From: a virus
Virus record (IMG/VR): IMGVR_UViG_3300045988_174353
Coordinates: 12,580-76,579 of that record
Reading direction: 5' to 3' (one strand)
DNA length: 64,000 nucleotides
Made by a program: the position numbers and the translations under genes. The notes beneath the pieces were generated by a model. The model made no database searches. It was not told the origin of the DNA and worked only from the letters and a program-made list of their open reading frames with translations. How positions within the stretch are numbered: position 1 is the first letter of the stretch; each line of letters opens with the position of its first letter. Below, one piece after another: positions 8,013 to 58,651 of this stretch.

Positions 8013-8273
8013 GAAAAATTGTAGTGTAAGTGATAAAGATTTCAGGTCAAAAATTTAAGATAATATCTACGATTTTGAAAGATTTTATACACGTTGTTGA
8101 CTAAAAATTTAATTTTTTGCTATTAATACTATATTTTTTTATTTTTATTTTTCATGCGTTTAATAGTAAAAATAATAATTTTTAAGAGAAAAGAAAGAAA
8201 TAAGAAAGAAAATGTCCTGTAATTATCTGCGATTTTGAGCAAAAAATCATTTTCACTTACACTACAATTTTTC
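8013..8273. repeat. perfect 21-bp inverted repeat pair flanking an AT-rich core
   Basis: GAAAAATTGTAGTGTAAGTGA at 8013-8033 and its exact reverse complement at 8253-8273, checked base by base. Confidence 0.9.
8061..8238. repeat. imperfect direct repeat pair inside the inverted repeat
   Basis: TAATATCTACGATTTTGA (8061-8078) versus TAATTATCTGCGATTTTGA (8220-8238). Confidence 0.7.
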
Positions 8274-8308
8274 CTGTCAGAATGTGATGAGATTGTGAAA
8301 AGAGGTGG

Positions 8309-8339
8309 TCGTCAGTTTTTTGATTTATACAACTGACGA
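8309..8339. repeat. hairpin built from the CGTCAG motif
   Basis: TCGTCAGTT (8309-8317) pairs with AACTGACGA (8331-8339). CGTCAG also occurs at 8002-8007 and 8358-8363. Confidence 0.7.
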
Positions 8340-8487
8340 AGAAAAAGGGGGGGTATACGTCAGTGGCACTTTACATTATTGTCATATCCTAAAATTTCGT
8401 AGTAAAGTATTGTATTGACATTATTGTTAAATGAAGAAAATCGGGGAATTTGGGGCGGGTGAGACCCGAAGAAAAAACTACAGAAAA

Positions 8488-8536
8488 CCCCGAATTTAGT
8501 GTAATCTCAAAAAAAGAAAAACGACTCGATTCGGGG
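8488..8536 (-). terminator. putative terminator downstream of 8594..9052
   Basis: CCCCGAAT (8488-8495) pairs with ATTCGGGG (8529-8536). T-runs follow on both strands, and a second small GC hairpin (CGGG..CCCG) lies at about 8445-8470. Confidence 0.5.
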
Positions 8537-8593
8537 TTTTCTTAAAGGAATAAAGGGGGAATGGATGGGCTTATTATTGTGTGAAGATTTTTC

Positions 8594-9052
8594 TTAACCT
8601 TCGATTTTGTCCTTGAAATACGGACACTGCGGTCGCTTGCTCTCAACCTTTAGTATGTCGAAACAATGACATATAGACGGCTCGCCGTCGATATTAACTT
8701 CGGAATTGTCGCAACTCTGGCAGGAAGACGGCTCGCAATTGTAACCGTCATATCGACAATACTTGCAATCATCGCGGTAAACTATTTTTCGGGGAGCAAT
8801 TTTGTCGAAAATTTTTATTCTGACGGTTTGCCCCTCTGCGGGTTCCTGACTCTGCTTCGGATTGTACTCTCCCTGCGACTGATTATTGATTTCGGGTAAA
8901 ACATCCGTTCCCCCGTTCTTTCGCTCGTCTTCGAGCCGCTCCGCAGTCTTACGCTCTTTTCGGTCGGCGATTCCCATCCCGATTAAACCGAGCATTATCG
9001 CAATCGTCCCCGCCGCAAGCAGTCCGATACAGATATTTGAAAAAATACTCAT
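8594..9052 (-). CDS. membrane-anchored Cys-rich hypothetical protein
   Basis: ATG 9052 (MSIFSNICIGLLAAGTIAIMLGLIGMGI..) follows a GAGGT RBS. One N-terminal TM segment and a C-terminal Cys-rich region. The track start 9067 lacks an RBS. Confidence 0.65.
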   Translation of the reverse strand: MSIFSNICIGLLAAGTIAIMLGLIGMGIADRKERKTAERLEDERKNGGTDVLPEINNQSQGEYNPKQSQEPAEGQTVRIKIFDKIAPRKIVYRDDCKYCRYDGYNCEPSSCQSCDNSEVNIDGEPSICHCFDILKVESKRPQCPYFKDKIEG

Positions 9053-27629: not shown

Positions 27630-29186
27630 TTAATGCAATTTGAACGACCGCCAACGCTTTAATTGACCGATAATCGGCTGAAAACCATATTCGGTAGCAG
27701 TCAATATATGGTCGTCGACATCGGCTCTTGCTTCGCCTTTCTTGCCTCTACGCGCGTTTTTAATTTCGCGGATAAGGTTTTTGCACTGGTCGCAAACAAG
27801 GAACGACGAATAAGCCATCATTAAACGCCAAAAGTCAATACGGGACTGAATGCTGATTTTCGTTGACGGCATAAACCGTAAATTGAAAAATCCCCATTCG
27901 CGGGCTTTCATTTCGAGTACTGCTCTGGCACCGACATCGGCAGAATCGACATAGACGTTAATCTGTCCGTTCATTAGCAAAGTCCCGCCGCCGCTGTATT
28001 TTTTCATCCATTCGGAGATATATTGCATAAGTCGGTCGGCTTGTGCGGGCAATCCGAGATTTTCGCGGTCGTCCGTATTGCAAGAGTTGTCTGCCGCATT
28101 GTTGCTGTGATAATATTCGTCGATGACAACCATTTTTTCAAGGTCGGACGTTACGGCGCAAAGCGACATAGTCGTAGCCGCGCGGATTTTTCTGTTTGGG
28201 TCTTCGCCTTTATTGACTTTTACTTTTTTACCTTCGCCGTCGGATAAGCCTATATCTATACCGATTGCAAAATCGTAGAAATTCATAACGGGCTTGCCGT
28301 AATTATCCTTGCCGACAAACGACGATAAGGGCAAAACCAAAGAATCGTTAAACTCGTCGTAAACGCTCGAACCTGTATTGCCGAACATTCCCAAAAATTC
28401 AACCTGATAGATTTTCGGCGATTTCCGCTTCATTTCCTGTGCGGATAAATCGTAATCTGCCGCCCTGAACTCATTGATTTTATAGGTTGATTTGTGAAGA
28501 TATAGTCCCCTGCCGTACGGTCCGATAAATTGCGGGTCGTAATAATCGACGTAATGCGTTTCGGGTCGGTCTAATAATTCGTAATCGTCGTCTAATCTGC
28601 CTTTGAAAAATTCTTCGTTAAGCCAAGATTCTCCGTCCCAAGCATTGAAACACATTGTTATCTGAAAGAATAAATCACCAGGCAGTTTACCACGGATTGA
28701 ACCGTCAAGTTTACGAAAGTCTTCGAATGTCGGAATCTCGAACGCTTCGTCGATGTAAGCGTCGGTAAAATAGCCGTGTGCGAACGTGATACCGTTTAAG
28801 GAAGTCGGGTTGTTAAGCCCACGAAAGATTATCTGTTGCCCCGTCGGTATATATTCGATTGTCAACGGATTCTTTGATATCTTAAAACTGTTTTCCAGAC
28901 CGAGGTCGATAATTCGTCCCGTAATGTTTTCAAACGTCGATTGACGGTTATCGCTATCGTTTTGACGAGCGATTAGAATATTTCGTCGCGAATCTGACAG
29001 AATTTTCATAATCGGCTCGCAACCGATTATATTATATGATTTTTTCGTAGAACGTGCGCCGCAGAACAGTCTGTAACGGACTCGACAATTTGTAAACCAA
29101 GCGTCGGTATAACCTTCGCCGATAAGCCGAGACAGCAGTAAATGTCTGTAACCGCGGTCGTCTACGCTGAATATTTCATCCCTCAT
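27630..29186 (-). CDS. terL: terminase large subunit (PBSX/Terminase_3-like)
   Basis: 518 aa. Walker A-like CGARSTKKS, Walker B AYIDEAFE, and a C-terminal RNaseH-like nuclease with acidic residues (IGIDIGLSDG, VYVDSADVG). Confidence 0.85.
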   Translation of the reverse strand: MRDEIFSVDDRGYRHLLLSRLIGEGYTDAWFTNCRVRYRLFCGARSTKKSYNIIGCEPIMKILSDSRRNILIARQNDSDNRQSTFENITGRIIDLGLENSFKISKNPLTIEYIPTGQQIIFRGLNNPTSLNGITFAHGYFTDAYIDEAFEIPTFEDFRKLDGSIRGKLPGDLFFQITMCFNAWDGESWLNEEFFKGRLDDDYELLDRPETHYVDYYDPQFIGPYGRGLYLHKSTYKINEFRAADYDLSAQEMKRKSPKIYQVEFLGMFGNTGSSVYDEFNDSLVLPLSSFVGKDNYGKPVMNFYDFAIGIDIGLSDGEGKKVKVNKGEDPNRKIRAATTMSLCAVTSDLEKMVVIDEYYHSNNAADNSCNTDDRENLGLPAQADRLMQYISEWMKKYSGGGTLLMNGQINVYVDSADVGARAVLEMKAREWGFFNLRFMPSTKISIQSRIDFWRLMMAYSSFLVCDQCKNLIREIKNARRGKKGEARADVDDHILTATEYGFQPIIGQLKRWRSFKLH

Positions 29187-40593: not shown

Positions 40594-41238
40594 ATGAAAA
40601 ATCGCTATGATTATTTAATGGGTTCAAAACAAAATGCTCTTACTGCTATTGATGTTGTTATTCGTCCGCATCCTGCAAAACCATGGCAAAAACAATCACT
40701 TATAAAATGTAAATGTGAATGCGGGAATATAACCTTTTTACTCCCTTCCCAATTTAAGACGGGAAATGTAAAAAGTTGCGGATGTTATCGTCATCGTAGT
40801 CCTTACAATACCACACATAAACAAAGTAAAACTCTATTATATCATATTTGGGAGACAATGCGCTTGCGTTGCTCTTCTCCAAACAATAAAAAATATTATA
40901 TGTATGGCGCAAGAGGAATTAAAGTCTGCGATGAATGGTTTGACAATTTTATTGCGTTTCGAGACTGGTCTTTATCTCATGGTTGGGAACAAGGTTTGAC
41001 TCTTGACCGAATAGATAATAACGCAGGGTATTCACCTGACAATTGTCGTTGGACAACCCATGCCGTTCAACAACGAAATACTCGTAGAAATGTCTATATT
41101 ACATATCAAGGGAAAACTCAAATTCTTGCAGACTGGTGTACGGAACTGGGATTAAACTACAAAACCATTCAAAACCGTATTCTAAATGGTTGGGATAAAA
41201 TTCGTGCATTAACCGAGCCTATTCATAAACCACATTAA
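40594..41238 (+). CDS. free-standing HNH-family homing endonuclease
   Basis: The N-terminus C-x-C-x-CGN...SCGC is like the 2380..3086 gene. LTLDRIDNNAGYSPDNCRWTTHAVQQRN is HNH-like. C-terminal HTH ILADWCTELGLNYKTIQNRILNGW. Opposite strand to all neighbours. Confidence 0.7.
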   Translation: MKNRYDYLMGSKQNALTAIDVVIRPHPAKPWQKQSLIKCKCECGNITFLLPSQFKTGNVKSCGCYRHRSPYNTTHKQSKTLLYHIWETMRLRCSSPNNKKYYMYGARGIKVCDEWFDNFIAFRDWSLSHGWEQGLTLDRIDNNAGYSPDNCRWTTHAVQQRNTRRNVYITYQGKTQILADWCTELGLNYKTIQNRILNGWDKIRALTEPIHKPH

Positions 41239-42159: not shown

Positions 42160-42180
42160 CCCACAAAATGGATACAAACC
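42141..42180 (-). terminator. rho-independent terminator
   Basis: Minus strand has GGTTTGTA (42180-42173) pairing with TACAAACC (42157-42150), followed by TATTTTTTAT. Confidence 0.65.
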
Positions 42181-42743
42181 TAAATAATTGCCGTATTTAA
42201 CTTTTCTTTTAGTCGTTTCTTTCGAATTTGAACCGACTTTTCGTTAATGCACAACTCGTCGGCAATAACGCTTTGCTTTGTTTTAAGAATAAAGAACTGA
42301 ACCGCGAGTTTCGTATTGTCTTCGCTTAAATGAATTTCTTCGCAACGCTTTAATAATTCTGATTGCGTACAGGTCAGACAATCAAAAGGTTTCGGCGCGG
42401 TTAGTCTGTCTATCTTTGTTTCGGCTTTATCGAGTTTCTTCTTTATATAACCGATATATCCTATAAAGTAACAGAGATAAACAGTTGAGAACAAACTGAA
42501 TTTTATCGGAGCAATCAGCACCATACCCACAACAAATACAATTGCAGTAACGATTCTGCATTTAGCGTGAGTGCTACAATGATATTGATATTGAAATTGT
42601 TCGCGAATAAGCCAATGACAGAAGAAAAAGAAAATCGCTTCGACCCACTTATCAAACAGATAAGCGGGTATAATAATAGCGGCACCCGAAACGAGTACCG
42701 CCATTATCGCGTTTTTAAGTTTAATCTTCGTGCTGAATTGCAT
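42180..42743 (-). CDS. membrane-anchored protein with C-terminal sigma-region-4/LuxR-type HTH
   Basis: 187 aa. About 4 N-terminal hydrophobic helices, then LSEDNTKLAVQFFILKTKQSVIADELCINEKSVQIRKKRLKEKL. Confidence 0.6.
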   Translation of the reverse strand: MQFSTKIKLKNAIMAVLVSGAAIIIPAYLFDKWVEAIFFFFCHWLIREQFQYQYHCSTHAKCRIVTAIVFVVGMVLIAPIKFSLFSTVYLCYFIGYIGYIKKKLDKAETKIDRLTAPKPFDCLTCTQSELLKRCEEIHLSEDNTKLAVQFFILKTKQSVIADELCINEKSVQIRKKRLKEKLNTAII

Positions 42744-43213: not shown

Positions 43214-43306
43214 TTCTATAATTGTTAATTTTGACCGTCTGCAACAAGCACAACATATTAAATAATACGAAAGAAAAGATAATACCGAACTCGCTAAATA
43301 CCAAGC

Positions 43307-43474
43307 CTATTTATGCGTATCGATATATTTACCGATTTCGCAAATCTTTTCGCTTTGAGCAGTTTCAACAACAAAAGACGGAAAGAAAATCTTTAAGACA
43401 TATAAGGAAATGAGTATCATTCCGCAAAGAATTAACCCCATTACCCATATATTATCGAATTTTTTAATCTTCAA
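43307..43474 (-). CDS. small single-pass membrane protein
   Basis: The track ORF starts at GTG 43546 but spans a promoter. TTG 43474 (MKIKKFDNIWVMGLILCGMILISLYVL..) follows a GGAAGTGAGAGAG RBS. ATG 43441 is an alternative. Confidence 0.4.
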   Translation of the reverse strand: MKIKKFDNIWVMGLILCGMILISLYVLKIFFPSFVVETAQSEKICEIGKYIDTHK

Positions 43475-43496
43475 CTCTCTCACTTCCTTATCACCT

Positions 43497-43524
43497 ATTA
43501 TATCACAAATTTTTAACTTGTCAA
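43497..43524 (-). promoter_or_regulatory. sigma-70/sigma-A type promoter
   Basis: Minus strand reads TTGACA (43524-43519), 16-nt spacer, TATAAT (43502-43497). Confidence 0.6.
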
Positions 43525-43554
43525 TAGGTAATCGGAAAATTTTCACAAAAGATT

Positions 43555-44172
43555 TTATAACTCTACGACATTATCCGTCAATTCGGAAATCTCTGTCCCC
43601 ATACGTTCTAAATATTTAACGGTAGTGCCGTCTTCCGTATACAACCCGTGAGCAATTATTTTTAGAACATTATCCGTATCGCGATAAACTTGTCCGTTTA
43701 CGCTTGATAAATGAGTTGATGCTGAATATGTAAAATGAGCCGCCGCATTGTCAGGCATTACGGGTAATGTCTCTTTTGTATAAGAAATTCCCTTACTCGA
43801 CGAAAAATCATAGAAGAAAAACTCGTTTGTAACTAATTTTAATTGTATGTAGTGACGATAAGTTTTTTGAACTTCGGAAGTTTGTTCATCCCCGTAGTCC
43901 TCATCGGTTTTTATAAAGATTTTATAACTGCTATCGTCGGCGGGCGGTTCCGTCCCGATATAAATTTCTGAAGCACTGACAAACGGCAATTCAGTAGCCG
44001 AACTGGTCCCATCGCCGACTTTTATTCTCGGCTCGGTGAAATTAAAATCCGCGTCGAAAACTATAATCTCTCCGCTATTAGGAATATACGGAGTTTCTAA
44101 CGCCGTCCATTGCGCTTCTGTACCGTGTTTACTGGTTATTTTTAATGCTCTTAATTGCTTTGCGTCTGCCAT
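43555..44172 (-). CDS. tail fibre protein with Mtd_N-like N-terminal domain
   Basis: LKITSKHGTEAQWTALETPYIPNSGEIIVFDADFNFTEPRIKVGDGTSSATELPF. The same N-terminal module occurs in 47353, 48356 and 51447. Confidence 0.65.
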   Translation of the reverse strand: MADAKQLRALKITSKHGTEAQWTALETPYIPNSGEIIVFDADFNFTEPRIKVGDGTSSATELPFVSASEIYIGTEPPADDSSYKIFIKTDEDYGDEQTSEVQKTYRHYIQLKLVTNEFFFYDFSSSKGISYTKETLPVMPDNAAAHFTYSASTHLSSVNGQVYRDTDNVLKIIAHGLYTEDGTTVKYLERMGTEISELTDNVVEL

Positions 44173-44183
44173 AAAATTTACCC

Positions 44184-44531
44184 TTAAAGAACAATAGCAT
44201 TATATTCCGCTTCAAGTTCGTTGTATTTAACTCGCCACTCTTCGCGCTGTTGACCTATTGATTCATATTCCTCGGCGGGCATTTTACCTTCAAGAAATTT
44301 AATTGCCTGATAATCGGTTTTATCCAATTGTAATTTAAGCGCATTCATTTCTGCAAGTAAACGACCTTTTTGTCTACGTTTTTCATTTTTTTGTTTTAAC
44401 GCTTCAAGTTTTTCGTTTTCGGCTTGTTTTTGCGCTTCAAGCGTTAATTTATCTTCTTCCGTAGGTATTCTTGCCCCGTCAGGAATATCGAGTTCAACAA
44501 GTTTGCCGTTTTTTTCTATTACATAAATCAT
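44184..44531 (-). CDS. coiled-coil protein, tail-fibre chaperone-like
   Basis: 115 aa. LDKTDYQAIKFLEGKMPAEEYESIGQQREEWRVKYNELE resembles the TDW..E..W..R..R..I motif of fibre assembly proteins. Confidence 0.45.
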   Translation of the reverse strand: MIYVIEKNGKLVELDIPDGARIPTEEDKLTLEAQKQAENEKLEALKQKNEKRRQKGRLLAEMNALKLQLDKTDYQAIKFLEGKMPAEEYESIGQQREEWRVKYNELEAEYNAIVL

Positions 44532-44540
44532 ATTTTACCT

Positions 44541-45605
44541 CTACGAATATAATATACTATTCCAAAAGCCATTGCTGATTATTTCAGATAGGCACTCTAA
44601 ACAATCTTTTGCAAATCCCTTTTCATTGTCGTACACAACGGCAAATTTTATCAGCGAGCCAAAAGTTTCAGATACGGTCTTAATAGTACTCTGAACTGGC
44701 AACATCGAACCGCTCGAATTTATAACATCGGAAGAAACAATGCTATCTTCAATTACTGTGATATCACTCAATGAACCATCGCTAAAAATATTCCAAATCG
44801 CTCCCTCATCAAATGTAGTCGGCATACATAATTCAAACTGCAAAAGGCTTCCACATAACACAGGAACTCTATATGCGTTAGTAATGATTTTGGTAGATAA
44901 ACTTGTCAAAACCGAACCAATTAAATCAGCCGCATTTGTAGTCGTTGGAACAATGTTTTGTGCCGCGGCTCGTCCTCGTTCAGGGGCTTCAGAATAACTA
45001 TCTGCAATTGCCTGGTCGTTTGTATAAGCGTGAATTGTTGTGATTCCACCACACAATATTTCTGACCCTAAACTACTCGCAACAATATTAAGGATTCGAA
45101 CCGCAATTTCTGTACTGCAAGAACCCATAGAAATCATATCCTGGTTGTTTGCAGACTCAATATTTACTCCGCGCACTATCACATTTGAATTTGACGGATA
45201 AAATTTTACCACATAATTTGCGCCAAGATTTAGAAATTCTCCATTTTGAACTGAGAACAAACCAGAACAATCCAAAACCGCAACACCGTTTGTACTAATA
45301 GTTGAGTCTGACAATATCGTATATATTTTACTATCCGAAGTAAGGACATCCGTATCAGTAGCAAATGGATAACTCGTACCGTCAATAGAAAGAGTAGCAT
45401 TAGTATCGGAATCGGTTCCTTCAACTATAACATCTTTCCATTGCCCGTAAACAGTGTCGTATTTTAACAAATATGCACATTTGCTCGGCGTTAAAATGGG
45501 GTCGCCAAATCCAACAATGTTAAAAGTTGAACTGTACCCGTCATGCAAAAACCTTGTAACGGCTCGCCCGATTCGCCCCATGCCGTAAATAAATACATTT
45601 ACCAT
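44541..45605 (-). CDS. glyceraldehyde-3-phosphate dehydrogenase (GAPDH) family protein, divergent
   Basis: Full-length collinear match to GAPDH motifs: IYGMGRIGR (INGFGRIGR), LLKYDTVYG, LDCSGLF, ISMGSCSTE (SNASCTTN), TTIHAYTNDQ, RGRAAAQNIVPTTTNAA, YRVPV and VVYDNEKGF. Confidence 0.85.
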   Translation of the reverse strand: MVNVFIYGMGRIGRAVTRFLHDGYSSTFNIVGFGDPILTPSKCAYLLKYDTVYGQWKDVIVEGTDSDTNATLSIDGTSYPFATDTDVLTSDSKIYTILSDSTISTNGVAVLDCSGLFSVQNGEFLNLGANYVVKFYPSNSNVIVRGVNIESANNQDMISMGSCSTEIAVRILNIVASSLGSEILCGGITTIHAYTNDQAIADSYSEAPERGRAAAQNIVPTTTNAADLIGSVLTSLSTKIITNAYRVPVLCGSLLQFELCMPTTFDEGAIWNIFSDGSLSDITVIEDSIVSSDVINSSGSMLPVQSTIKTVSETFGSLIKFAVVYDNEKGFAKDCLECLSEIISNGFWNSILYS

Positions 45606-45615
45606 ATTTTACCTC

Positions 45616-45831
45616 TTAATAATAATCGTTGCCGAGTTTTTGAAGTTGAAGTTTGACTTTGGTTGTTGAAGTCAAGTTTATCGTAGTATCAAGCGAGCCG
45701 TTATAAGTCCCGACTGTTACTCCGTCTTGTTTAATAGTTAAAGTCTTTATATCTGCAACAGTTCCACTACCCGAACCTAACCCCTGAATTTTCTTCCATT
45801 CGCGGTTCTTTTTATAATAAATAGTCGCCAT
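45616..45831 (-). CDS. short fibre N-terminal module protein (71 aa)
   Basis: MATIYYKKNREWKKIQGLGSGSG.. parallels MATFYYNKNNVWTKVDISGGGDSGG.. of 46288..46884. Confidence 0.55.
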   Translation of the reverse strand: MATIYYKKNREWKKIQGLGSGSGTVADIKTLTIKQDGVTVGTYNGSLDTTINLTSTTKVKLQLQKLGNDYY

Positions 45832-45832
45832 A

Positions 45833-46276
45833 TTATCCCTCTGTATTTATTTTAACCCAATCTAAATCGTCGGGTTCCACCATTGTATCTGTTGCGTCCA
45901 GCCAAGCCCTGTACCACACAGCCAATTCGTTATGTTGCACTTCAGTCAGCGTGTCGTACCACAACTGCCCGCGGTTAATTATCGGAAAACACTTTTCTTC
46001 ACGATTTGCCCGAATATTTGCTTTTATTTGCTCTTCGGTCTGGACGTGCGGGACAAGTTTTAATGTGCCTGTTCTGTGTCCGAGTTCATTTATTGATGTA
46101 ATTTTATCCACAACAGGATATACACTTTCGAGCAAACTAAACGCGGGAATTTCATTGACAAGAATAAAAGAATATTCGGGATTTTTTATGATATAATCTT
46201 CATAATTTTCTCCGTCCTTGACAAAATAATAACTAAAAATTTCGGGTTCTTTTGGTTTATAATTAAATACTAACAT
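45833..46276 (-). CDS. tail fibre assembly protein-like (cassette copy B)
   Basis: 147 aa, about 60% identical by eye to 46891..47346. Shared stretches: VDKITSINELGHRTGTLKLV, CFPIINRG-LWY and DTMVEPDDL-WV. Confidence 0.65.
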   Translation of the reverse strand: MLVFNYKPKEPEIFSYYFVKDGENYEDYIIKNPEYSFILVNEIPAFSLLESVYPVVDKITSINELGHRTGTLKLVPHVQTEEQIKANIRANREEKCFPIINRGQLWYDTLTEVQHNELAVWYRAWLDATDTMVEPDDLDWVKINTEG

Positions 46277-46287
46277 ATATCTCTCCC

Positions 46288-46884
46288 TTAATATTGAGGA
46301 TAAATTATAAAACTTTTGAATACATTTCCGCTTGTCCCGTAATTCCCTACACCAGTTTTTATCTTAGTAGAAGAAGTATTAGAAACATCGATAGTAAAAT
46401 ACATTCTTAACGCATCATTTGTTATTGCAATGCTGTGACCTGTATCGCTGAACCCCTTGATTGCCGAGTTGTTCAAAGTTGTCGCCGAACAGCCGCCATC
46501 TGGCTTAACTGCAACAAATGTAACGCTACTCATTTTATAAAGGTCAATAGTTTCGAAACTTTGATTTTGAGACAAAGACGAAGTTAATATTATTCCTGAT
46601 AGTGCTAATTCATAAGCCTTAAAAAAATTCGGATTATTAGAAGCATCGAATGCAATATATTTTATCCCCGTGCCAGTAGGTTTTGAAGTCGGAGCATATA
46701 TTGTTGCCCCCGCTTTTGACCTGAAAGTTGAACCATTTATCATAACAGGTTCAATCCATTTGCTGTCTCCAAATAATACTTTTGACGTTGTACCTCCGCT
46801 CGGCAATGAGCCGCCGCTATCTCCACCGCCTGAAATGTCCACTTTTGTCCATACATTATTTTTATTGTAATAAAACGTAGCCAT
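46288..46884 (-). CDS. tail fibre tip / receptor-binding protein candidate
   Basis: 198 aa. The N-terminus GGSLPSGGTTSKVLFGDSKWIEPVMINGSTFRSKAGATIYAPTSK is shared with the middle of 47353..48231. The C-termini diverge. Confidence 0.6.
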   Translation of the reverse strand: MATFYYNKNNVWTKVDISGGGDSGGSLPSGGTTSKVLFGDSKWIEPVMINGSTFRSKAGATIYAPTSKPTGTGIKYIAFDASNNPNFFKAYELALSGIILTSSLSQNQSFETIDLYKMSSVTFVAVKPDGGCSATTLNNSAIKGFSDTGHSIAITNDALRMYFTIDVSNTSSTKIKTGVGNYGTSGNVFKSFIIYPQY

Positions 46885-46890
46885 ATCTCG

Positions 46891-47346
46891 TTAATCCCCC
46901 ATATTTACATTTACCCAAGACAAATCGTCGGGTTCTACCATTGTATCGGGAGCGACTAACCATGCTTCGTACCAGGAGTCCAATTCTTGCAATTGTGCGT
47001 TAGACAGTTTATTGTACCATAACTTTCCGCGATTGATTATCGGAAAACATTTTTGTTCACGATTATATCTAATTTCGTTTTTTCTTTGTTCTGCGGTCTG
47101 AACACGCGAAACTAATTTTAATGTCCCAGTCCTATGACCGAGTTCGTTTATCGAAGTTATTTTATCCACAATAGGATAAATCCCGTCAAAGACATCGTAT
47201 TCGGGTATTTCGTCAACAAGAATAAAAGTATATTCATCGTTACGAACTATATCCTTTGTATAATCTCCGTCTTTTTCCACTTTATAATAAGTAAAAGTAG
47301 CGGAGTCGTCTATTTTATAGTTAAATACGTACATATTATCAAGCAC
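46891..47346 (-). CDS. tail fibre assembly protein-like (cassette copy A)
   Basis: 151 aa, paralogue of 45833..46276. Confidence 0.65.
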   Translation of the reverse strand: MLDNMYVFNYKIDDSATFTYYKVEKDGDYTKDIVRNDEYTFILVDEIPEYDVFDGIYPIVDKITSINELGHRTGTLKLVSRVQTAEQRKNEIRYNREQKCFPIINRGKLWYNKLSNAQLQELDSWYEAWLVAPDTMVEPDDLSWVNVNMGD

Positions 47347-47352
47347 CTCTCC

Positions 47353-48231
47353 TTAATAAATCAAATAGGCTCTTAAACCTGCGGTCAGGTTGTTGTAAGA
47401 AGAACTTTTAACAGTTACCATCGTAGACCCGCCGCTTGAAATCGACGTCATATTTGAAGTTGATAATTGAAAGCCATTAGAAGAGTCATCAATGGAAAAA
47501 TAATTACCTGATAACAACATTTGTCTATTAAACGCCGTAGAAATCCAATAACCGTTTTTATGCCCCACCGCAAAAATTACAAGCCGACACCACCTTAAAT
47601 CACGAGCAATTGTATAACTTTTAGCCGTTGCGTTTGTCGGCATACTTGTCGTTACTGTTACGGTCTCAATATAATCGTCAGTGCTGAACGTATCTGTCCA
47701 AATCGGAGTTGTTCCGCCTTTTTGAAAAACGCAGTAAGACTTAGCCTTTGCGGGCGCGTAATAATAGGGAAAAGTATCTGATGAGGTAGCCCCTTTGAAC
47801 CCCGACTTAGTAATAGGTGCGTAAATCGTTTTGCCCGCTTGCGACCTGAACGTATTACCATTTATCGAAACTGGGGTAGCCCAGACTGAATTACCCCATA
47901 AAACGTCAGTACTCGTGCCACCAGTCGGCAATGAACTACCGCCCGACGATGACCCGCCTGTATAATTTTCGTCTGTTTTTATAAAAAATTTGCGAGTTTC
48001 ATCTGCTATCGGAAGAGATGTTCCAATGAGAACTTCATCTGTCCCCACGAACGGCAACGCATTGACTAACTTTGTCCCGTCGCCAACCTTAAAACGCGGT
48101 GCAGAATGAGTGCTATCCGCGTCATAAACAATCAGTTCGCCTGCTTCGGGTCTGAAATTTGTCGCTTTCTTCCAATTTGCTTCTGTATCGTGCTTTTGCT
48201 TGATACGTAATTTTGCTGTTTTTTCAGCCAT
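47353..48231 (-). CDS. tail fibre protein with Mtd_N-like N-terminal domain
   Basis: LRIKQKHDTEANWKKATNFRPEAGELIVYDADSTHSAPRFKVGDGTKLVNALPF, then GGSSLPTGGTSTDVLWGNSVWATPVSINGNTFRSQAGKTIYAP. Confidence 0.65.
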   Translation of the reverse strand: MAEKTAKLRIKQKHDTEANWKKATNFRPEAGELIVYDADSTHSAPRFKVGDGTKLVNALPFVGTDEVLIGTSLPIADETRKFFIKTDENYTGGSSSGGSSLPTGGTSTDVLWGNSVWATPVSINGNTFRSQAGKTIYAPITKSGFKGATSSDTFPYYYAPAKAKSYCVFQKGGTTPIWTDTFSTDDYIETVTVTTSMPTNATAKSYTIARDLRWCRLVIFAVGHKNGYWISTAFNRQMLLSGNYFSIDDSSNGFQLSTSNMTSISSGGSTMVTVKSSSYNNLTAGLRAYLIY

Positions 48232-48322
48232 ATATAATCTCCTTTGAATTTATCGCTTTCAAAATCTGGAAACAAGTCGCGTCATCTTTTCAGGCGCGGC
48301 TGAATATACAAATTTAGCCTCG

Positions 48323-48341
48323 GCGGGGAATTGCTCCCCGC
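48323..48341 (-). terminator. GC-rich hairpin after the fibre gene (weak terminator)
   Basis: GCGGGGA-aattg-TCCCCGC, 15 nt after the stop at 48356. No clear U-tract follows. Confidence 0.3.
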
Positions 48342-48355
48342 TTTGGCGTTGAATG

Positions 48356-50017
48356 TTATAATACTGTACTGGACGTTCCGCAATCGATTATCATAATCTG
48401 CGAATCGTCGGACTGGTTTGCGTTAAATATTTCAGTTCCTGCCCTGTCGGTTAATTTACCGCTGTTCGGAGCGATTGCGTCGGGAAGTTTCTTTCTCTCT
48501 ACGGCAATTACACCGTCGGTTTGAGACACTTTCGAAACATAATAATTAGCCTGTTCGGTATCGGTATAATCAAGTTTTCCGATTTCTCTTTGAATTGAAC
48601 CAATCGTCGCCAAATCCATTATTCCTGTTGGCGTGTCAGATTCGCTATTAACCTGACGCAGAAGTCGTGCGCCTACTTTTACCTTATCATTTGCTGAATC
48701 GAAAACTGTAAGTATTTCAACTTCGGAACCTACATCAGGAGTAAAATGTATTGTTTTTGGAGAATATGTTTGTTCTTCAGAAGTTAAATCTTCTTTCCCG
48801 ACAACATAAACAATACCTTGTGCATCTTCTCTCCATGCAGGATTACCGCTTGCGTCGGTCTTCCAAACCTTATTCGCCTGCCCAGAACCTTTCGTTACAT
48901 AACCGTCGGCAGTCTTCGAGTTCGCAACCCATGTATATTTATCGATTTCGCCGTGAATTACGCTCCAGGTCGCCGCTGTAGCACCCGATTTTATCGTTTC
49001 GCAAAGAAGCAAATCGCCAGGGTGAAGAGTTTCGCTGTTATAAGTAAATCCAACCGAAACACGGCAGAAATCGCCTTTGCTATCAGGCTTCAATGCGTTT
49101 AATTCTGCAAGGCTCTTGACGGTACCCAAATACTGAACTGCTCCGACGACCATTTCATCGACTTCGCCTTTTGTATAAACAGGTAAAGTAATCGTACTTG
49201 CCGACGACTGATTCGCTGTAAACGAACCCGTTCCCGAAACATTACCCTCTTTACCGACTTTAATCGTTAAAGCCCCATTACCAACCGTCGGGATAGTCGG
49301 GGGGACAGGAATAGTTATATCAATAGAACTATCAGCAACAGTTGTAACATGTCCATATTCATTTACAGACATTGAAGGAATTTTTATCGTATGTACTTTC
49401 CCGTCCGCTGTTACTTCCGTCGGATTACTTCCCGATGTCCAGGCTCCACTTGCGTGTTCCTTTTTATGCTTAATAGTCTTTTCCGCTGAATCGACTATAA
49501 CCGTTCCATCGCCAGTATAAACCGTATCGGTATCAGTCCACGGAACGGCAACCATTAAATGCCCGTTTTTATCGAGTTCGACAGCATAAATTTTTGAGCC
49601 TGTACCTTTCGAAGCCACCGCGGCATTTTTCGTGTAGTTCACCAAGTCTGCACTAACGGTATAAGCATTAGTCCCTTCGTTTTTTGCAGTTGTTACGCCG
49701 TTTCTGCCCGTAATGCTTGCAACGGGCGGTAAAGTTGCTTTTGCCCATTCGTAAACGTCTGCGGCAAGTCCTGAAGCCCACGGAAGAGAATTAAACGCAG
49801 TTCCCGTGATTTCGCCCGTCGACGAAACCTGTCCGTCGCCGACCTTGAAAAGAATTTGAGGAGCCGAAATAGAATTAACTTCTTTGGTCGGTTTAGCCGC
49901 CACATATACGGCGGCGAGTTCGCCCGCAAGAAGTATCGGATTGTTTTCAGTCCAATTCTCGTAACTGTCGTATTTTAATTTAATACGAGTCTGTAATGTT
50001 TTTTGATTTGTAGCCAT
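48356..50017 (-). CDS. tail fibre protein (553 aa) with Mtd_N-like N-terminal domain
   Basis: TRIKLKYDSYENWTENNPILLAGELAAVYV...ILFKVGDGQ..., followed by a long Thr/Gly/Val-rich beta-type region. Confidence 0.65.
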   Translation of the reverse strand: MATNQKTLQTRIKLKYDSYENWTENNPILLAGELAAVYVAAKPTKEVNSISAPQILFKVGDGQVSSTGEITGTAFNSLPWASGLAADVYEWAKATLPPVASITGRNGVTTAKNEGTNAYTVSADLVNYTKNAAVASKGTGSKIYAVELDKNGHLMVAVPWTDTDTVYTGDGTVIVDSAEKTIKHKKEHASGAWTSGSNPTEVTADGKVHTIKIPSMSVNEYGHVTTVADSSIDITIPVPPTIPTVGNGALTIKVGKEGNVSGTGSFTANQSSASTITLPVYTKGEVDEMVVGAVQYLGTVKSLAELNALKPDSKGDFCRVSVGFTYNSETLHPGDLLLCETIKSGATAATWSVIHGEIDKYTWVANSKTADGYVTKGSGQANKVWKTDASGNPAWREDAQGIVYVVGKEDLTSEEQTYSPKTIHFTPDVGSEVEILTVFDSANDKVKVGARLLRQVNSESDTPTGIMDLATIGSIQREIGKLDYTDTEQANYYVSKVSQTDGVIAVERKKLPDAIAPNSGKLTDRAGTEIFNANQSDDSQIMIIDCGTSSTVL

Positions 50018-53770: not shown

Positions 53771-56700
53771 TTAAATTGCAAAGAACGGAGAAATTGCGCC
53801 TGTATCACCGCCACTTACCAATGAACCAAATGCCCTATACAACAACGGCGTTCCACCGCCAACCGATTCGCTATCCCTTAAAAACCACACACCTGCTGTC
53901 TCTGTTCCGACAATATTTTTTGTGTATTTCTTGATTGTTTTATAATACTGTAATTGCGAAATATTAACATTTCCCGAACCAGTAATTTCAGTATAGGACG
54001 GAAGGAATAATTTCCCTTGTGTTTCTCTCCCCGCAGGGCGAACATTGCCAGGAAGTTCAAAATCATAAACAGTGTATTTAACCTCTTTTATTACAGCCTG
54101 CAAATCATCGGGTAGTAAGTCAAAGAATGACGGTAAAATAGTTGTCTGAATGTCAGAACCTACATATAAAGTTTTGGGGTTAAGAACAGGGGTAAAATCT
54201 GTTTGTCCTTCCAAATTTATACATTCTACAAATTCAAAAATAATATGCGGGACTTCTCCTCCGTCGATGGGATATACATGCCCAGGTCTTGTTTCAACAA
54301 GCCGCACAATATATTGTCTACCGTCTTTAGTCGTGACTGTTTTAGTATCTCCAATATTCCAAACTGGAAGTGCCATATCACTTTCCGCAATACGTTTTAT
54401 ATCAGCCCAAGACGTATCGTTTAGGCTCTTTGTAACAAGCGGAACTTCAACGCTTTCAAAAAGTTGCATCCCCCATTTTTTTGCCTGCGGATGTTGAAGA
54501 TAATTTAACGATTTGCCAACGACTTGATGATATTTATTAAAGATTCGCATATCTTTTCTTTTTACCGCAGATATATACGCTTTATATGGTTCTTCTTTAT
54601 TATTATCAGAGAAATTTACTCCAAAAACAAAGTGGTAAAGACAATTATTTGGTTCGTAAGAATAATTTACAATCGCTCCTGTTGGTCCAAAATCTTTTTT
54701 ATAAGCCTCGGCATCATCCAAATAATACAATGAAAGACTTTTACAATTATTTACTGGAGTAACAGATACATAACTATTTCCATTTTCGTCCGTATTTAAT
54801 GTCATGTAATCTTTTACATTAAGATTATTTTTATTTGTCAACTCATTATATGTATAGGTTTTTGAAACAATTTCTTTATTGATTGCGTTATCAGAAGGCA
54901 ACAAAACCATATTTTTATGATATAAAATTTTATCTTTTTGAGAAGTCGCAATTTGTAAAGAAATTTCTTGCTTTTGCAAATCCAAAATATTATGCCCATT
55001 CCATTCAAGCCCCCTGTTAGGGATGTAATAGTCAAGACTCCCCGCTCTATACATCCAACGCGTTGGACCGCCTAAATAACAGCCTATTTGGACTCCTAAA
55101 AACTGATTATCATTCATCGGATAGGAACTAATAGGATAAGATATAACTTTATTATTGCTTAAATCTTTATAGCGGAATTTTTTAAGCATTGTTTCCGCAT
55201 TAGTAAAAGGGTCTATTTGTCCGTCATCGGCAAGAATCGACATATCAACACCCCCACAAATAGATACAGGGCTAATCAATGACGGGAACCATTCGCTCTT
55301 CAAAAGTCGAGTCTTTCCAAACACACTATTGAATTGACTCTTATCTATAGCACTGCCAGCCTTGTCATCTGCCAATGTGGCAAAATATACCCAACCATCG
55401 CCCGAATTTAATCCACATTGAGTATATTCCTGTATTCCGTTAGGCATTAAAGTTCCGCTAAATGAAGGAATTTGTCCCATGACTGGTAAATAAAATGCAA
55501 AATCTGATATTATGTGTTCGGTGTAAGATATCTCGCCATAATTTGTCGCAGAAAGAGGTTTAGATATCACAAAAAAAGACAATTCACCGCGCAAAAAAGC
55601 CATTACAGGAGTTGAATCTGTATCATTTGTAAATTTTAATTGAATTTTTTTGCCCGTAAACTTATTTAAGAAAATACCACTTGTAAAGTTGTTGTGAAAT
55701 AATTGACTTTTTAGTGAATATTCATCTTTCAGATTGTTAAATTTTATTTCAAAATTTTCTATATTAGGGATTTCTTTTAATCCGTCAATATTCGAAACAG
55801 AGACTAAGTTTTCTTTTCTTATGTTATTTTGTCCAATTTGTAAAATTACGGCAGGAGTCAAATGGACTTCTTGTGTTGACGAGTTAAAAGATGTGCCAAC
55901 AGTAAATATATTGCTATATCCCTCAAACTGGACTGCATACACTTTTATTCCCGACTTAAATCCAACATCTTGTTCTTTTTCGATATCTTCTGCAAATCTA
56001 TGTTTTCCTCCTAAGAGGTCGGACAACTTAAAAATCCAAGGCGATAAAACTATATTATCGCTTAAACATAAATTTTCAAATTGTAAAGTCATATCAATAT
56101 GTTCTTTATTATCTTTACTATACGATTTCTCTACGCCTATTTTATCATTAAGTTCTGTCAACATTTGCGGAGCCGTAAAAATATTAGAAGCATATATTTG
56201 AGCAATTTTATCAGTCGCCTTTTCTGAATTTAGTTTTTTGAAGTTTTCAAAATAGAATAAATCATTATTGTCCTGGTGTCCTACAAAAAAACCTAATCGA
56301 GTCGCATATCCATAATTATCTGTAAAAACGGTAAGTTTTTGTTTACTTCCTGCATAGTCCTTACTATTAGAGCCAAAGAAAAGTTCTTTCCATGTTTTAG
56401 AACTATAATCAAAGACGTCTCCATTGTCATCAATAGCGTTCACAAATGGTTCAAAAGCAGAAATAAATGGACCTTGCGTATAATTATCATTCATTTTTAC
56501 ATTAAAACATAAGTTATTCCCCGCCGCAAAAGCCTGAACATCGGAATAAAATTTTTTGCCATCAGTCAAAATATATCCTGCGTTAATATCATAATCATTG
56601 CGAAATTCGTAGACGCCGATAATATCATCAGCCGTATAAGGAGATAAAAAACTAAATATACGATTAAAAGAATTTACCGAAGATGAAGCGTCAACAATAT

Positions 56701-58651
56701 TTTCATCTTCATAAAATGAACAATCGTCTGCCCAATAAAAATATTCCTTTTCATTTTCGGCACGTCTAACACTTTCATTATAGGACATAATTCTCCATGT
56801 CCTATACTTTGCAAAAACCGAGGTAAACCAATTTTTTAAGACATAATTCTTTATTCCATAATAAACACATGAAATATAATTGTTAAATATCGAATACTCT
56901 CTATGGTAGATAACTACATCATTTTCATAGTTTGAGTTGTACACACTGCCTAACTGTTGCAAAGTCTCTGTGCCATCATGACCCCAAAATGCTTTATATC
57001 TTGCATTGATTTGAAGGGCTTTGTTGCCAAATCTATTAACTTTTTCCTTTTGAAAAACTGAATCTTGTTCGATAAGTGTTAAACTATCCGAAGTGTTATC
57101 ATTTATAACAATATCATCTTTTTCATTATCCTTAGAATGGACAATTGCCCCATTATAAAATCCTTGATAATCAACAATAAAAAATATTGCCTTTAAGCCC
57201 AAAGAGGCATTTTTATACGGATTGAATACCGAAGAAAATACGTTATATACAACTCCATTTTTTTCTTCGCTGTTTATTCCTTGAGCAGATTCCCACAACT
57301 TAAATACAGAACTACTGTCATAGACCTGGCTAATTTCAACGTCTTCATCATCATCTTCTTTGAATTGTTCTCTTACTTCTGCATTACTAAGGATTCCGTA
57401 AGGGCAAAAATACTCCATTCTTGTCAGCAAATTTTGAACATAAGTATATTTATTGTCATTATAAAATCCAGGATAAGTATAGAGTTTTCCCCAACCCTCG
57501 ATATACCGACTACCGATATCATAGCCCACGGTACAAAAAAGATATTCCGCCATCTCATCAATGCTTGTGGGGATATTATCTTTATGTAAATCACTCCAAT
57601 CTTGCGACAACGCATTCCTTTCAGTATTTAATTTTACAAGTTTTGAAATATCTTGTTGGCATAAAATATATTTTTGCTGTGCAGAAGATTTAGTCCCGTC
57701 TTTTTTAATATGTATCACATTTATTTTCTTGTAGTAACACATATACATTTTATTTATGCGATAAATCGGATAGCCTAATTCTATACGCATATTTTCAATC
57801 GTCATCAATGCGTTATCATTATTCCTAAAATTTACACACTCAACAGACCTACAAATCCCATCTTTTGATAAAGCGTCGGAATAATTTCTACGCAAATTAT
57901 CGCAATAATTATCACTTGTCATTGAACCTGTAATAATATTCACATTTTGCGGATTTTTATCAAATTCCCCATTACGTTTTGATATGTCTAAAGCATATAT
58001 AACATCATCTTTTACATAAGGAATCATGTCTTTTACAATAAATAAAGATGACAAAAAACTCCGCAGTGTGGGGGCGTTAAAAGTTTTTTCGGGAGCCAGA
58101 ACATCACCGAAAATATCAGACAATGTCTCACTTAACGAATATTTCTTTACAAATTCCCACTTAAATGTTTTTTGCCCGTAATAACTATAAACTTGTTTTT
58201 TATATATCGGAGAATATAATTCTACAATAGTTGTTGCTTTATCCCAAACGTTTATTTTTCGACCTTCAAGAGGTTGAGTTATTGAAATATTAGGTAACTG
58301 TATCGTTTCGAGTTTTTTCGTTTCACTCATTAACTCGATTTTATATTTATACCGTCCTTCTTCTTCCGAATCGCCTAAACGCAATACTTCTTCCGTAAAC
58401 TGGTCTACAAGTAAATGTTTATAAAATTTCGGTTGCGGATTCGTTTCGTCAAAAGGATATCCAATAAATTTATAATCTTTATCTGTAAAAGAATAAATAA
58501 AAACGTCATCATAAGGCATTAATCCTTTTATTTTGCTAACGTTATTTATTATAATGGAGCCGCTATCCAAAGTTTCGTTATACTCCTCTGCAAAAGTGGC
58601 TCCTTGTAATATATCATATTGTATTCCGTTAATTGTCGCTCTTAAATCCAT
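53771..58651 (-). CDS. giant tail protein (1626 aa; Tal/minor-structural-protein-like N-terminus)
   Basis: The N-terminus MDLRATINGIQYDILQGATFAEEYNETLDSGSIIINN resembles the N-terminal region of phage minor structural/tail-associated proteins. Very AT-rich compared with its flanks. Confidence 0.65.
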   Translation of the reverse strand: MDLRATINGIQYDILQGATFAEEYNETLDSGSIIINNVSKIKGLMPYDDVFIYSFTDKDYKFIGYPFDETNPQPKFYKHLLVDQFTEEVLRLGDSEEEGRYKYKIELMSETKKLETIQLPNISITQPLEGRKINVWDKATTIVELYSPIYKKQVYSYYGQKTFKWEFVKKYSLSETLSDIFGDVLAPEKTFNAPTLRSFLSSLFIVKDMIPYVKDDVIYALDISKRNGEFDKNPQNVNIITGSMTSDNYCDNLRRNYSDALSKDGICRSVECVNFRNNDNALMTIENMRIELGYPIYRINKMYMCYYKKINVIHIKKDGTKSSAQQKYILCQQDISKLVKLNTERNALSQDWSDLHKDNIPTSIDEMAEYLFCTVGYDIGSRYIEGWGKLYTYPGFYNDNKYTYVQNLLTRMEYFCPYGILSNAEVREQFKEDDDEDVEISQVYDSSSVFKLWESAQGINSEEKNGVVYNVFSSVFNPYKNASLGLKAIFFIVDYQGFYNGAIVHSKDNEKDDIVINDNTSDSLTLIEQDSVFQKEKVNRFGNKALQINARYKAFWGHDGTETLQQLGSVYNSNYENDVVIYHREYSIFNNYISCVYYGIKNYVLKNWFTSVFAKYRTWRIMSYNESVRRAENEKEYFYWADDCSFYEDENIVDASSSVNSFNRIFSFLSPYTADDIIGVYEFRNDYDINAGYILTDGKKFYSDVQAFAAGNNLCFNVKMNDNYTQGPFISAFEPFVNAIDDNGDVFDYSSKTWKELFFGSNSKDYAGSKQKLTVFTDNYGYATRLGFFVGHQDNNDLFYFENFKKLNSEKATDKIAQIYASNIFTAPQMLTELNDKIGVEKSYSKDNKEHIDMTLQFENLCLSDNIVLSPWIFKLSDLLGGKHRFAEDIEKEQDVGFKSGIKVYAVQFEGYSNIFTVGTSFNSSTQEVHLTPAVILQIGQNNIRKENLVSVSNIDGLKEIPNIENFEIKFNNLKDEYSLKSQLFHNNFTSGIFLNKFTGKKIQLKFTNDTDSTPVMAFLRGELSFFVISKPLSATNYGEISYTEHIISDFAFYLPVMGQIPSFSGTLMPNGIQEYTQCGLNSGDGWVYFATLADDKAGSAIDKSQFNSVFGKTRLLKSEWFPSLISPVSICGGVDMSILADDGQIDPFTNAETMLKKFRYKDLSNNKVISYPISSYPMNDNQFLGVQIGCYLGGPTRWMYRAGSLDYYIPNRGLEWNGHNILDLQKQEISLQIATSQKDKILYHKNMVLLPSDNAINKEIVSKTYTYNELTNKNNLNVKDYMTLNTDENGNSYVSVTPVNNCKSLSLYYLDDAEAYKKDFGPTGAIVNYSYEPNNCLYHFVFGVNFSDNNKEEPYKAYISAVKRKDMRIFNKYHQVVGKSLNYLQHPQAKKWGMQLFESVEVPLVTKSLNDTSWADIKRIAESDMALPVWNIGDTKTVTTKDGRQYIVRLVETRPGHVYPIDGGEVPHIIFEFVECINLEGQTDFTPVLNPKTLYVGSDIQTTILPSFFDLLPDDLQAVIKEVKYTVYDFELPGNVRPAGRETQGKLFLPSYTEITGSGNVNISQLQYYKTIKKYTKNIVGTETAGVWFLRDSESVGGGTPLLYRAFGSLVSGGDTGAISPFFAI

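Follow-up and report, generated by a model that had tools for sequence, protein, structure and literature searches.

A glyceraldehyde-3-phosphate dehydrogenase homologue among phage tail-fibre genes as a putative separately encoded fibre head

The 64,000-nucleotide stretch of viral DNA analysed here (positions 12,580 to 76,579 of IMG/VR record IMGVR_UViG_3300045988_174353, hereafter the window) carries, within a block of tail-fibre genes, a gene for a 354-amino-acid (aa) protein that is homologous to glyceraldehyde-3-phosphate dehydrogenase (GAPDH) over its full length. We favour, with moderate confidence, the reading that this protein is a GAPDH-derived distal head or adhesin of a side fibre, which is encoded separately from the fibre and docked on it non-covalently. 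A sequence-only reading of the same stretch had left two options, a fibre-associated receptor-binding module and an unusual late-expressed auxiliary enzyme. Comparative genomics favours the former, through the mobility of the gene as a cassette, the loss of the catalytic Cys and His in relatives with the same gene order, and the exchange of a fibre head domain between two related phages. The features at the core of the locus are as follows.

45616..45831, minus strand: 71-aa adaptor protein with an N-terminal anchor (MATIYYKKNREWKK), a Gly/Ser linker and a C-terminal module
45619..45747, minus strand: the C-terminal module of the 71-aa protein (aa 29-71, KTLTIKQDGVTVGTYNGS...QKLGNDYY-COOH), always directly upstream of a GAPDH-like gene
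45606..45615, minus strand: 10-nt spacer with the Shine-Dalgarno sequence GAGG; the 71-aa and GAPDH-like open reading frames (ORFs) on its two sides are separate cistrons in different frames
44541..45605, minus strand: GAPDH-like protein of 354 aa (Gp_dh_N plus Gp_dh_C; Pfam, PDB, AlphaFold2 and NCBIfam), the proposed distal head of a side fibre
45567..45584, minus strand: Rossmann GxGxxG motif (G8-M-G10-R-I-G13), kept in all phage GAPDH-like proteins including the pseudoenzymes
45276..45443, minus strand: residues ~55-110, the most variable segment of the phage clade, with lower model confidence (model and alignment)
45117..45119, minus strand: codon of Cys163, equivalent to the catalytic Cys149 of GAPDH, in the motif SCST (alignment)
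45030..45032, minus strand: codon of His192, equivalent to the catalytic His176, in the motif HAYTNDQ (alignment)
44184..44531, minus strand: 115-aa protein, modelled as a beta-hairpin and a long helical hairpin, a candidate assembly helper (model and family context)

The GAPDH-like ORF starts with ATG, with GAGG 6 nt 5' of this codon. A Pfam scan of its product matched Gp_dh_C (4.6e-23) and Gp_dh_N (4.3e-12), each above the gathering score, and a phmmer search against the PDB matched 140 GAPDH sequences. The top match was 6fzi (1.1e-31, residues 1-343), in whose alignment SCST of the window protein lies on SCTT and TIHAYTNDQ lies on the catalytic His motif. The AlphaFold2 model, built with 60 sequences, had a mean predicted local distance difference test (pLDDT) score of 87, and a Foldseek comparison with GAPDH crystal structures gave template modelling (TM) scores of 0.83-0.90. 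These approaches agree, far beyond chance, on a protein with the PF00044 plus PF02800 architecture and fold of type I GAPDH, and thus uphold the collinearity claimed in the sequence-only reading, which had proposed the two domain searches and a structure prediction as checks. All motifs quoted in that reading are present (IYGMGRIGR, GFGD, LLKYDTVYG, MGSCSTE, TTIHAYTNDQ, RGRAAAQNIVPTTTNAA, YRVPV and VVYDNEKGF), and the catalytic Cys and His are retained as it had suggested, since Cys163 and His192 align with their cellular counterparts both in the phmmer/PDB comparison and in the alignment of the clade. The nearest cellular enzymes, from Bacilli, Acholeplasmataceae and similar groups, share ~35% identity with the window protein. 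PHROG 21942, annotated as 'unknown function', matches it over its full length (9.5e-42).

The arrangement around this gene recurs in other phages. A triad consisting of a protein ending in ...TLTIK...GNDYY-COOH, a GAPDH-like gene after 10 nt, and a ~115-aa helical-hairpin protein ends fibre loci in at least six phage backbones, and the first two genes of the triad are also kept in a seventh context, a mobile element (L046). A search for GAPDH-family genes flanked by fibre genes, which the sequence-only reading had proposed, found the arrangement in seven contexts. In all seven the protein upstream of the GAPDH-like gene has a C-terminal N-(D/N)-(I/Y)-Y tail, and six of the seven are the ends of tail-fibre loci with a small helical protein downstream. 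The type of upstream protein varies from a 71-aa adaptor to a fibre shaft, an LRR protein and a collagen-like fibre. The gene orders are listed below, in which L numbers denote related loci.

Window, L001, L002 and L015-L021: 66-71-aa adaptor, GAPDH-like gene, 115-aa protein
L022: main fibre shaft fused to the module as a 287-aa hybrid, GAPDH-like gene
L037-39 (61-kb contig): LRR_5 protein of 354 aa ending in IGNDYY, GAPDH-like protein of 336 aa, 114-aa protein, end of operon
L040/41 (34-kb temperate phage): collagen-like fibre of 790 aa ending in ...TLTIKSGGTTLGTYDG...PYNDIY, GAPDH-like gene, 124-aa protein
L043: 117-aa protein ending in PFNNIY, GAPDH-like gene, member of the 115-aa family
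L044: 118-aa protein ending in PFNDIY, GAPDH-like gene, member of the 115-aa family
L045: GAPDH-like gene present on the contig as a fragment only
L065 (IMG/VR): 539-aa fibre that starts with MATYKIYKK, like the 71-aa adaptor, and ends in FFNDIY, GAPDH-like gene
L046-49: 62-aa protein ending in FGNDIY, pseudo-GAPDH gene, 128-aa membrane protein outside the 115-aa family

Relatives of the window protein in protein databases include close ones at 98%, 90% and 86% identity and two deeper groups at 45% and ~40%, each of the deeper groups having many variants on phage-sized contigs. In the close relatives and in both deeper groups, the gene 10 nt before the GAPDH-like gene ends in a ~42-aa module (TLTIKxxGxTxGTYDGS...IGNDYY-COOH), and a protein of 114 or 115 aa follows. 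A search of IMG/VR with a profile of the GAPDH-like clade returned only relatives at 26-32% identity, among which L013 and L065 denote one and the same contig. More remote IMG/VR relatives of the window phage, with the same fibre gene order, had no detectable homologue of the GAPDH-like, 71-aa, 115-aa or 147-aa protein. When the window is compared with L003, identity is 78% and 94% in the flanking genes but only 65%, 45% and 68% in the three genes of the triad, of which the GAPDH-like gene is the most divergent. Because the triad diverges jointly against conserved flanks, it probably constitutes a co-evolving cassette. Taken with the seven contexts, gene order and sequence comparison indicate that the GAPDH-like gene moves as a cassette between unrelated phage backbones.

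Three of these contexts deserve further description. The hybrid protein of L022 is 86% identical to a 538-aa fibre protein over ~285 aa. Its gene (8059..8922) is a deletion hybrid, in which the shared motif LTIK marks the junction between the first ~245 aa of the 538/553-aa fibre and the last ~43 aa of the 66-aa adaptor; the deletion removed the C-terminus of the fibre itself and one tip cassette, leaving the GAPDH-like gene directly after the shaft. On the L037-39 contig, the tape-measure protein is followed by three large proteins, the last of which is the LRR_5 protein. A 462-aa protein with BspA/LRR_5-like repeats (recognized by eye) also follows a fibre gene in a distant IMG/VR relative (L030, 16391..17779), and its repeats are of the same kind as those of the L037 protein carrying the GNDYY module. 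In L046 (5620..7419; also in L047-L049), the unit consists of genes for a 58-aa protein, the 62-aa protein, the pseudo-GAPDH of 340 aa and the 128-aa membrane protein, and it is flanked by a 1673-aa RHS/YD-shell protein on one side and a large serine recombinase on the other, a location that is not clearly a tail locus. The L046 protein is indexed in 124 blocks of the collection, and one of its contigs came from a mouse gut metagenome.

The clearest evidence for a role at the fibre tip comes from a comparison of L040 with L127/L128 of IMG/VR. Residues 1-754 of the L040 fibre share 86% identity with the 913-aa fibre of L127/L128. Past residue 754, the L127 fibre continues into a ~150-aa covalent C-terminal domain, whereas the L040 fibre ends in a 36-aa module and a separate GAPDH-like gene comes next. 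The L127 fibre gene is directly followed by a 170-aa member of the 115-aa family and then by two genes homologous, at 65% and 70% identity, to the next two of L040; in L040, the GAPDH-like gene precedes the 124-aa member of that family. Judged from these two gene orders, the module together with the GAPDH-like protein stands in the place of a fibre head domain. The sequence-only reading had placed the protein in the slot of a receptor-binding tip, and both this head swap and the anchor that the 71-aa adaptor of the window has in common with a neighbouring tip protein are in keeping with that placement.

Five lineages with the same arrangement (L040, L043, L044, L046 and L065) lack the catalytic Cys and His. 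In these pseudoenzymes the Cys motif SCTT is replaced by NGDV, DIET, NAEI, PQME or PATQ, and the His by C, T, R or G, while GxGxxG, Asp32, Arg231, the GRA(A/G)AWNI segment, the overall fold signature and the gene order are kept. A profile of the pseudoenzymes matched ~360-aa proteins in more than 40 clusters at 90% identity, along with a group of 331-344-aa proteins, and all inspected matches were without the Cys/His dyad. A scan of GTDB genomes with this profile returned only cellular GAPDHs, from Peregrinibacteria and similar groups, and no prophages. Given the loss of Cys and His in sister lineages that share the arrangement, the retention of the gene beside fibre genes is not due to GAPDH catalysis, and a host-type enzymatic reaction does not appear to be the function under selection for the family as a whole. 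A neighbour-joining tree separated cellular GAPDHs, the window clade and the pseudoenzymes. In both phage groups GMG stands in place of GFG and one residue is inserted after Asp32 (NDP in pseudoenzymes; GDP, ADP or GDQ in the window clade). These characters, together with the common neighbouring genes, argue for a single origin of the window clade and the pseudoenzymes.

In the window, the GAPDH-like gene lies in a co-oriented fibre gene block with tight spacing and fibre proteins on both sides. The order of the block is 553 aa; [292 + 151]; [198 + 147]; [71; GAPDH-like; 115]; 205 aa. Spacers measure 9-11 nt, a Shine-Dalgarno sequence precedes every gene, and the genes around the locus all lie on the minus strand. 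Further features of the block are listed here.

48356..50017, minus strand: 553-aa main fibre protein; in the relative L022, the GNDYY module is joined to its N-terminal ~245 aa
47353..48231, minus strand: 292-aa fibre protein (PHROG 'tail assembly protein', 3e-05; weak Mtd_N match), with an N-terminus in common with the 205-aa protein
46891..47346, minus strand: 151-aa protein, which follows the 292-aa protein
46288..46884, minus strand: 198-aa tip protein, with an anchor module as in the 71-aa protein but a covalent C-terminal domain
45833..46276, minus strand: 147-aa protein, paralogue of the 151-aa protein, which follows the 198-aa tip protein and from its position may be a helper
43555..44172, minus strand: 205-aa protein, last gene of the fibre operon, with an Mtd_N match below the gathering score
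43497..43524, minus strand: perfect sigma-70 consensus (TTGACA-16-TATAAT with TG), just 3' of the last fibre gene and before small membrane-protein genes

The neighbours described in the sequence-only reading were recovered on both sides. Upstream, 10 nt from the GAPDH-like gene, the 71-aa protein has an N-terminus (MATIYYKKNREWKK) that matches MATFYYNKNNVWTK of the 198-aa protein, so that the two proteins have an anchor and a Gly-rich linker in common. After the anchor, the 198-aa protein continues into its covalent domain, whereas the 71-aa protein continues into the module, which is followed by the GAPDH-like gene. Downstream lie the helical 115-aa protein and then the 205-aa protein, whose first ~90 residues are ~49% identical to those of the 292-aa fibre protein. 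Several proteins of the fibre run have Mtd_N-type N-termini. Such matches can suggest a diversity-generating retroelement, and here they are limited to a ~37-residue N-terminal domain. We also considered whether the 71-aa and GAPDH-like ORFs could be fused by frameshifting, and ruled this out, as they lie in different frames, have Shine-Dalgarno sequences of their own and are separate ORFs in all relatives. The 71-aa, 115-aa and 147/151-aa proteins had no match in Pfam, PHROG or NCBIfam.

The GAPDH-like gene is functional and under purifying selection. The ratio of nonsynonymous to synonymous substitution rates (dN/dS) was 0.13-0.17 among the window, L001 and L002. In L015/L016/L022 it was 0.39-1.4, beside an adjacent 115-aa gene with dN = 0 and a 205-aa gene with 0.04-0.07. 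Variability within the clade is concentrated at residues 55-110, 149-153, 172-179 and 262-270, and residues 181-260, which include the former active-site loops, are nearly invariant. The GC content of the gene equals that of its neighbours, which suggests that it is an old phage resident and not a recent pick-up. A recent transfer from a host is ruled out by this match and by the low best cellular identity given above.

The protein has nevertheless departed far from cellular GAPDH. Against the equivalog model TIGR01534, it scored 192.8 bits with a cut-off of 367.2 bits, compared with 288.1 bits for the relative P0006 and 410.7 bits for the cellular control P0007. All members of the phage clade carry replacements at positions that are at least 90% conserved among 53 cellular GAPDHs, namely N6Y, N31G, E94D, T96S, H108F, A120Y, N152E/Q, P156R/Q, G209N/S/T, D241Q, W310V/I and Y317F (conventional numbering). 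The DPxxLPW region of the cellular enzymes has given way to the variable insert at residues 55-110. The window clade shows no variation in GxGxxG, Asp35 (D32), Cys163, His192, Thr195, Arg210/212, Arg246, Asn327 and the DNE motif, and the whole catalytic and phosphate-site set of the conventional enzyme (Cys149/His176, Thr179, Arg195, Arg231 and Asn313) is aligned. In the NAD pocket, GxGxxG and Asp35 are kept, and N6Y, N31G, S119F, A120Y and Y317F are fixed in the clade; some of the replaced positions are at or adjoin known NAD-contact residues.

This mixture of retained and replaced residues bears on whether the protein is a late auxiliary metabolic enzyme, either a functional GAPDH or a close aldehyde-phosphate dehydrogenase, which would boost host glycolysis or NADH during virion production and lie among fibre genes since accessory genes gather there. 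Such an enzyme would account for the catalytic, phosphate-site and NAD-binding residues that are kept at 39-45% identity, for the low dN/dS among the window, L001 and L002, for the full GAPDH fold of the predicted model and for the name GAPDH given to the protein by public pipelines. However, the score falls short of the TIGR01534 cut-off by a wide margin, and N6Y, N31G, S119F/A120Y and G209N alter positions that in part touch or adjoin NAD contacts. Moreover, relatives with the same neighbours are without Cys and His, the gene is always co-inherited with an upstream fibre C-terminal tail that a free cytoplasmic enzyme would not need, and in L040 it replaces the fibre head domain found in L127. 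We therefore consider an auxiliary enzyme unlikely.

The small downstream protein raises another explanation. An exhaustive search with a profile of the 115-aa protein returned 1036 representatives with E-values up to 0.001. The genomic context was read for seven of them (the query family's own cluster, the second-best match, which was assumed to be the L037-type 114-aa protein, and five further matches), and six of the seven follow a GAPDH-like gene (L040/41, L043, L044, L045, the window family and the L037 family). Family members at 72 IMG/VR loci mostly come ~9-20 nt after a gene for a protein of 300-1250 aa, and several of these upstream genes are visibly fibre-like by their repeats (collagen or LTIQKNG-type). 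The AlphaFold2 model of the 115-aa protein had a pLDDT of 95.6, and a Foldseek search of the PDB gave no significant match for it. For ten relatives of the protein, Pfam gave sub-threshold coiled-coil matches only, and there was a weak match to an unnamed PHROG. 

The GAPDH-like protein could itself be a fibre assembly or maturation factor outside the virion, comparable to T4 gp38, that binds the GNDYY module transiently and folds, oligomerises or modifies the fibre. Such a factor would fit the close association of the gene with the upstream fibre C-terminus and with a small helical protein whose family commonly follows long, partly fibre-like genes, as well as the two other cassettes of the window, in which a tip protein is paired with a helper-like protein of 147 or 151 aa. 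However, the L040 fibre and the 71-aa protein would then end in a headless stub of ~40 aa, and the L127 fibre, which has a covalent head and no GAPDH-like gene, yet keeps the small protein of the 115-aa family. In addition, the variable segments and the raised dN/dS in one subgroup beside invariant neighbours are more typical of a host-facing part, so an assembly factor also seems an improbable account. An unrelated accessory function hitch-hiking by the fibre genes, such as an NAD-binding decoy, an anti-defence factor or a surface or exclusion protein of a mobile element, is far less probable still. Of the seven contexts, six lie at the end of a tail-fibre locus, and L046 still keeps its upstream ...FGNDIY protein. 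In favour of such a function, GxGxxG and Asp32 persist in the pseudoenzymes, which may mean that dinucleotide binding matters, and L046 lies beside a serine recombinase and an RHS protein with no clear tail module.

In the reading that we favour, a GAPDH-derived protein was taken over as the head of one of several alternative side fibres of a gut phage of ~76 kb. The 71-aa protein would supply an N-terminal anchor like that of the 198-aa tip protein, a flexible Gly/Ser linker and the ~42-aa module ending in ...GNDYY-COOH. On this module the GAPDH-like protein, translated from the next cistron 10 nt further on, would dock non-covalently as a globular tip contacting the host surface, and the 115-aa helical-hairpin protein may help its assembly or attachment. 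Because the window lineage keeps the Cys/His/Arg/Thr set under purifying selection, its old active site is probably still used. It is tempting to speculate that it serves as a binding pocket for a phosphorylated surface ligand, for example a wall polymer, or performs a residual reaction. The present analysis lends no support to the binding of mucin or plasminogen-type ligands raised in the sequence-only reading.

Several points weigh against a docked fibre head. The usual oligomer of GAPDH, a tetramer of 222 symmetry, fits awkwardly with a trimeric fibre. The retention of every catalytic residue under purifying selection in the window lineage also fits a real enzyme. The L046 cassette, beside a serine recombinase and an RHS protein, has no clear tail locus, and its downstream gene encodes a membrane protein. 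The neighbour-joining tree does not resolve whether the catalytic and pseudoenzyme branches are monophyletic, that is, whether or not there was one capture. It should also be noted that virion incorporation, docking, receptor binding and the role of the 115-aa protein are what we infer, in the case of docking on the GNDYY module from co-inheritance alone.

Compared with bacterial type I GAPDH (GapA; TIGR01534), the window protein has the same collinear two-domain fold, Cys/His pair, phosphate-site Arg and Thr, GxGxxG and Asp32. It differs in scoring about half of the equivalog cut-off, in its variable insert at residues 55-110, in lying in a phage fibre operon and not with glycolytic genes, and in having pseudoenzyme sisters. 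Moonlighting GAPDH occurs on the surface of Gram-positive bacteria and mycoplasmas. Two papers report that free GAPDH re-associates with Gram-positive cell surfaces and peptidoglycan (PMC4415926, PMC3264557). Such re-association is a plausible, though speculative, pre-adaptation for the role of a fibre head.

Phages of the T2/T6/PP01 type have a separate adhesin, gp38, docked on the tip of gp37, and small assembly chaperones such as gp57A. The gp38 of PP01 is described in PMC12892980 as the receptor-binding protein at the tip. Of known systems the T2-type fibre comes closest to the working proposed for the window family, in which a fibre protein would likewise be combined with a separate exchangeable adhesin gene and a small helical helper. 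However, there is no kinship in sequence or fold, and the head of the window family would be a Rossmann-type fold of 330-370 aa with putative docking through an N(D/N)(I/Y)Y tail. Modular receptor-binding proteins of phages infecting Gram-positive bacteria likewise join a conserved N-terminal anchor or shaft to a variable, swapped distal part, and the window has two such ordinary cassettes. Their typical heads are beta-rich trimers, whereas the GAPDH-like head would have its own gene, derived from an enzyme of central metabolism.

The sequence-only reading had known of no described phage tail locus with this arrangement. In the literature searched, we found no description of the fibre linkage, docking tail or pseudoenzyme branches of phage GAPDH-like proteins, so this claim held there; however, the arrangement itself recurs in metagenomes, and such proteins have been publicly auto-annotated as 'GAPDH, type I [Caudoviricetes sp.]' (DAI49886.1 and DAV01148.1). 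Phage GAPDH-like proteins are also already clustered in PHROG 21942, a family without annotation of function or context. A search of BFVD found no viral protein with a GAPDH fold. Megablast of window positions 43000-51000 against GenBank phages gave no match, and tblastn of the GAPDH-like protein against the same phages gave only matches below 35% identity, mostly short unannotated fragments or clearly bacterial stretches. A sequence identical to the GAPDH-like protein (P0125) is recorded on contigs of up to 76.6 kb.

A broader proposition, for and against which we see the case as evenly balanced, is that the GAPDH fold has been exapted into a new and widespread class of separately encoded receptor-binding heads, which would clip onto a ...N-D/N-I/Y-Y-COOH tail that can be grafted on any type of fibre (adaptor, shaft, LRR or collagen). 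One branch would keep the Cys/His/Arg pocket, perhaps for holding a phosphorylated cell-wall ligand or reacting with it, and the others would be pseudoenzymes. If true, a core metabolic enzyme has become part of the virion, in a natural series that runs from catalytically intact proteins to pseudoenzymes and with a portable docking tag. It would then represent a new fold among phage receptor-binding proteins, mislabelled as metabolic by current predictors of fibres and receptor-binding proteins, and would offer a handle on host recognition in abundant uncultured gut phages. The tag and head would further suggest a plug-in system for host-range engineering. The context of 'GAPDH' calls in viromes should be checked before they are counted as auxiliary metabolic genes.

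Beyond the GAPDH-like locus, the window also encodes a large terminase (27630..29186), a helicase, a D5-type primase and helix-turn-helix regulators. The two other cassettes of the fibre block (45833..48231, minus strand) are paralogous, each consisting of a tip protein and a ~150-aa protein (292 + 151 and 198 + 147), and the 147-aa and 151-aa proteins are ~62-66% alike. The number of tip cassettes differs among relatives, with one in L001 and L015 and two in L002, and pieces have been shuffled among the 292-, 198- and 205-aa proteins. The sigma-70 consensus at 43497..43524 probably starts a separate transcription unit, and no promoter comparable to it was found inside the fibre/GAPDH block.

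Directly downstream of the fibre operon lies a gene for a 187-aa membrane protein (42180..42743, minus strand) with an AgrB domain (Pfam, 3.5e-09, above the cut-off), which is kept in all close relatives. This domain may indicate that the host is of Firmicutes type or that peptide signalling is interfered with. On the plus strand the region has just one sizeable gene (40594..41238). It encodes an HNH endonuclease (PHROG 374, 3.7e-58) and overlaps the end of an 88-aa gene by 4 nt. At this position L022 has a 214-aa ORF in the opposite orientation, matched by position and length alone, and none was called in L001 or L015; from its sequence and placement, the gene looks like a homing-endonuclease insertion. 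Upstream of the fibre genes, a 1626-aa protein (53771..58651, minus strand), whose sole match is a C-terminal DUF6273, varies from 1150 to 1769 aa in relatives.

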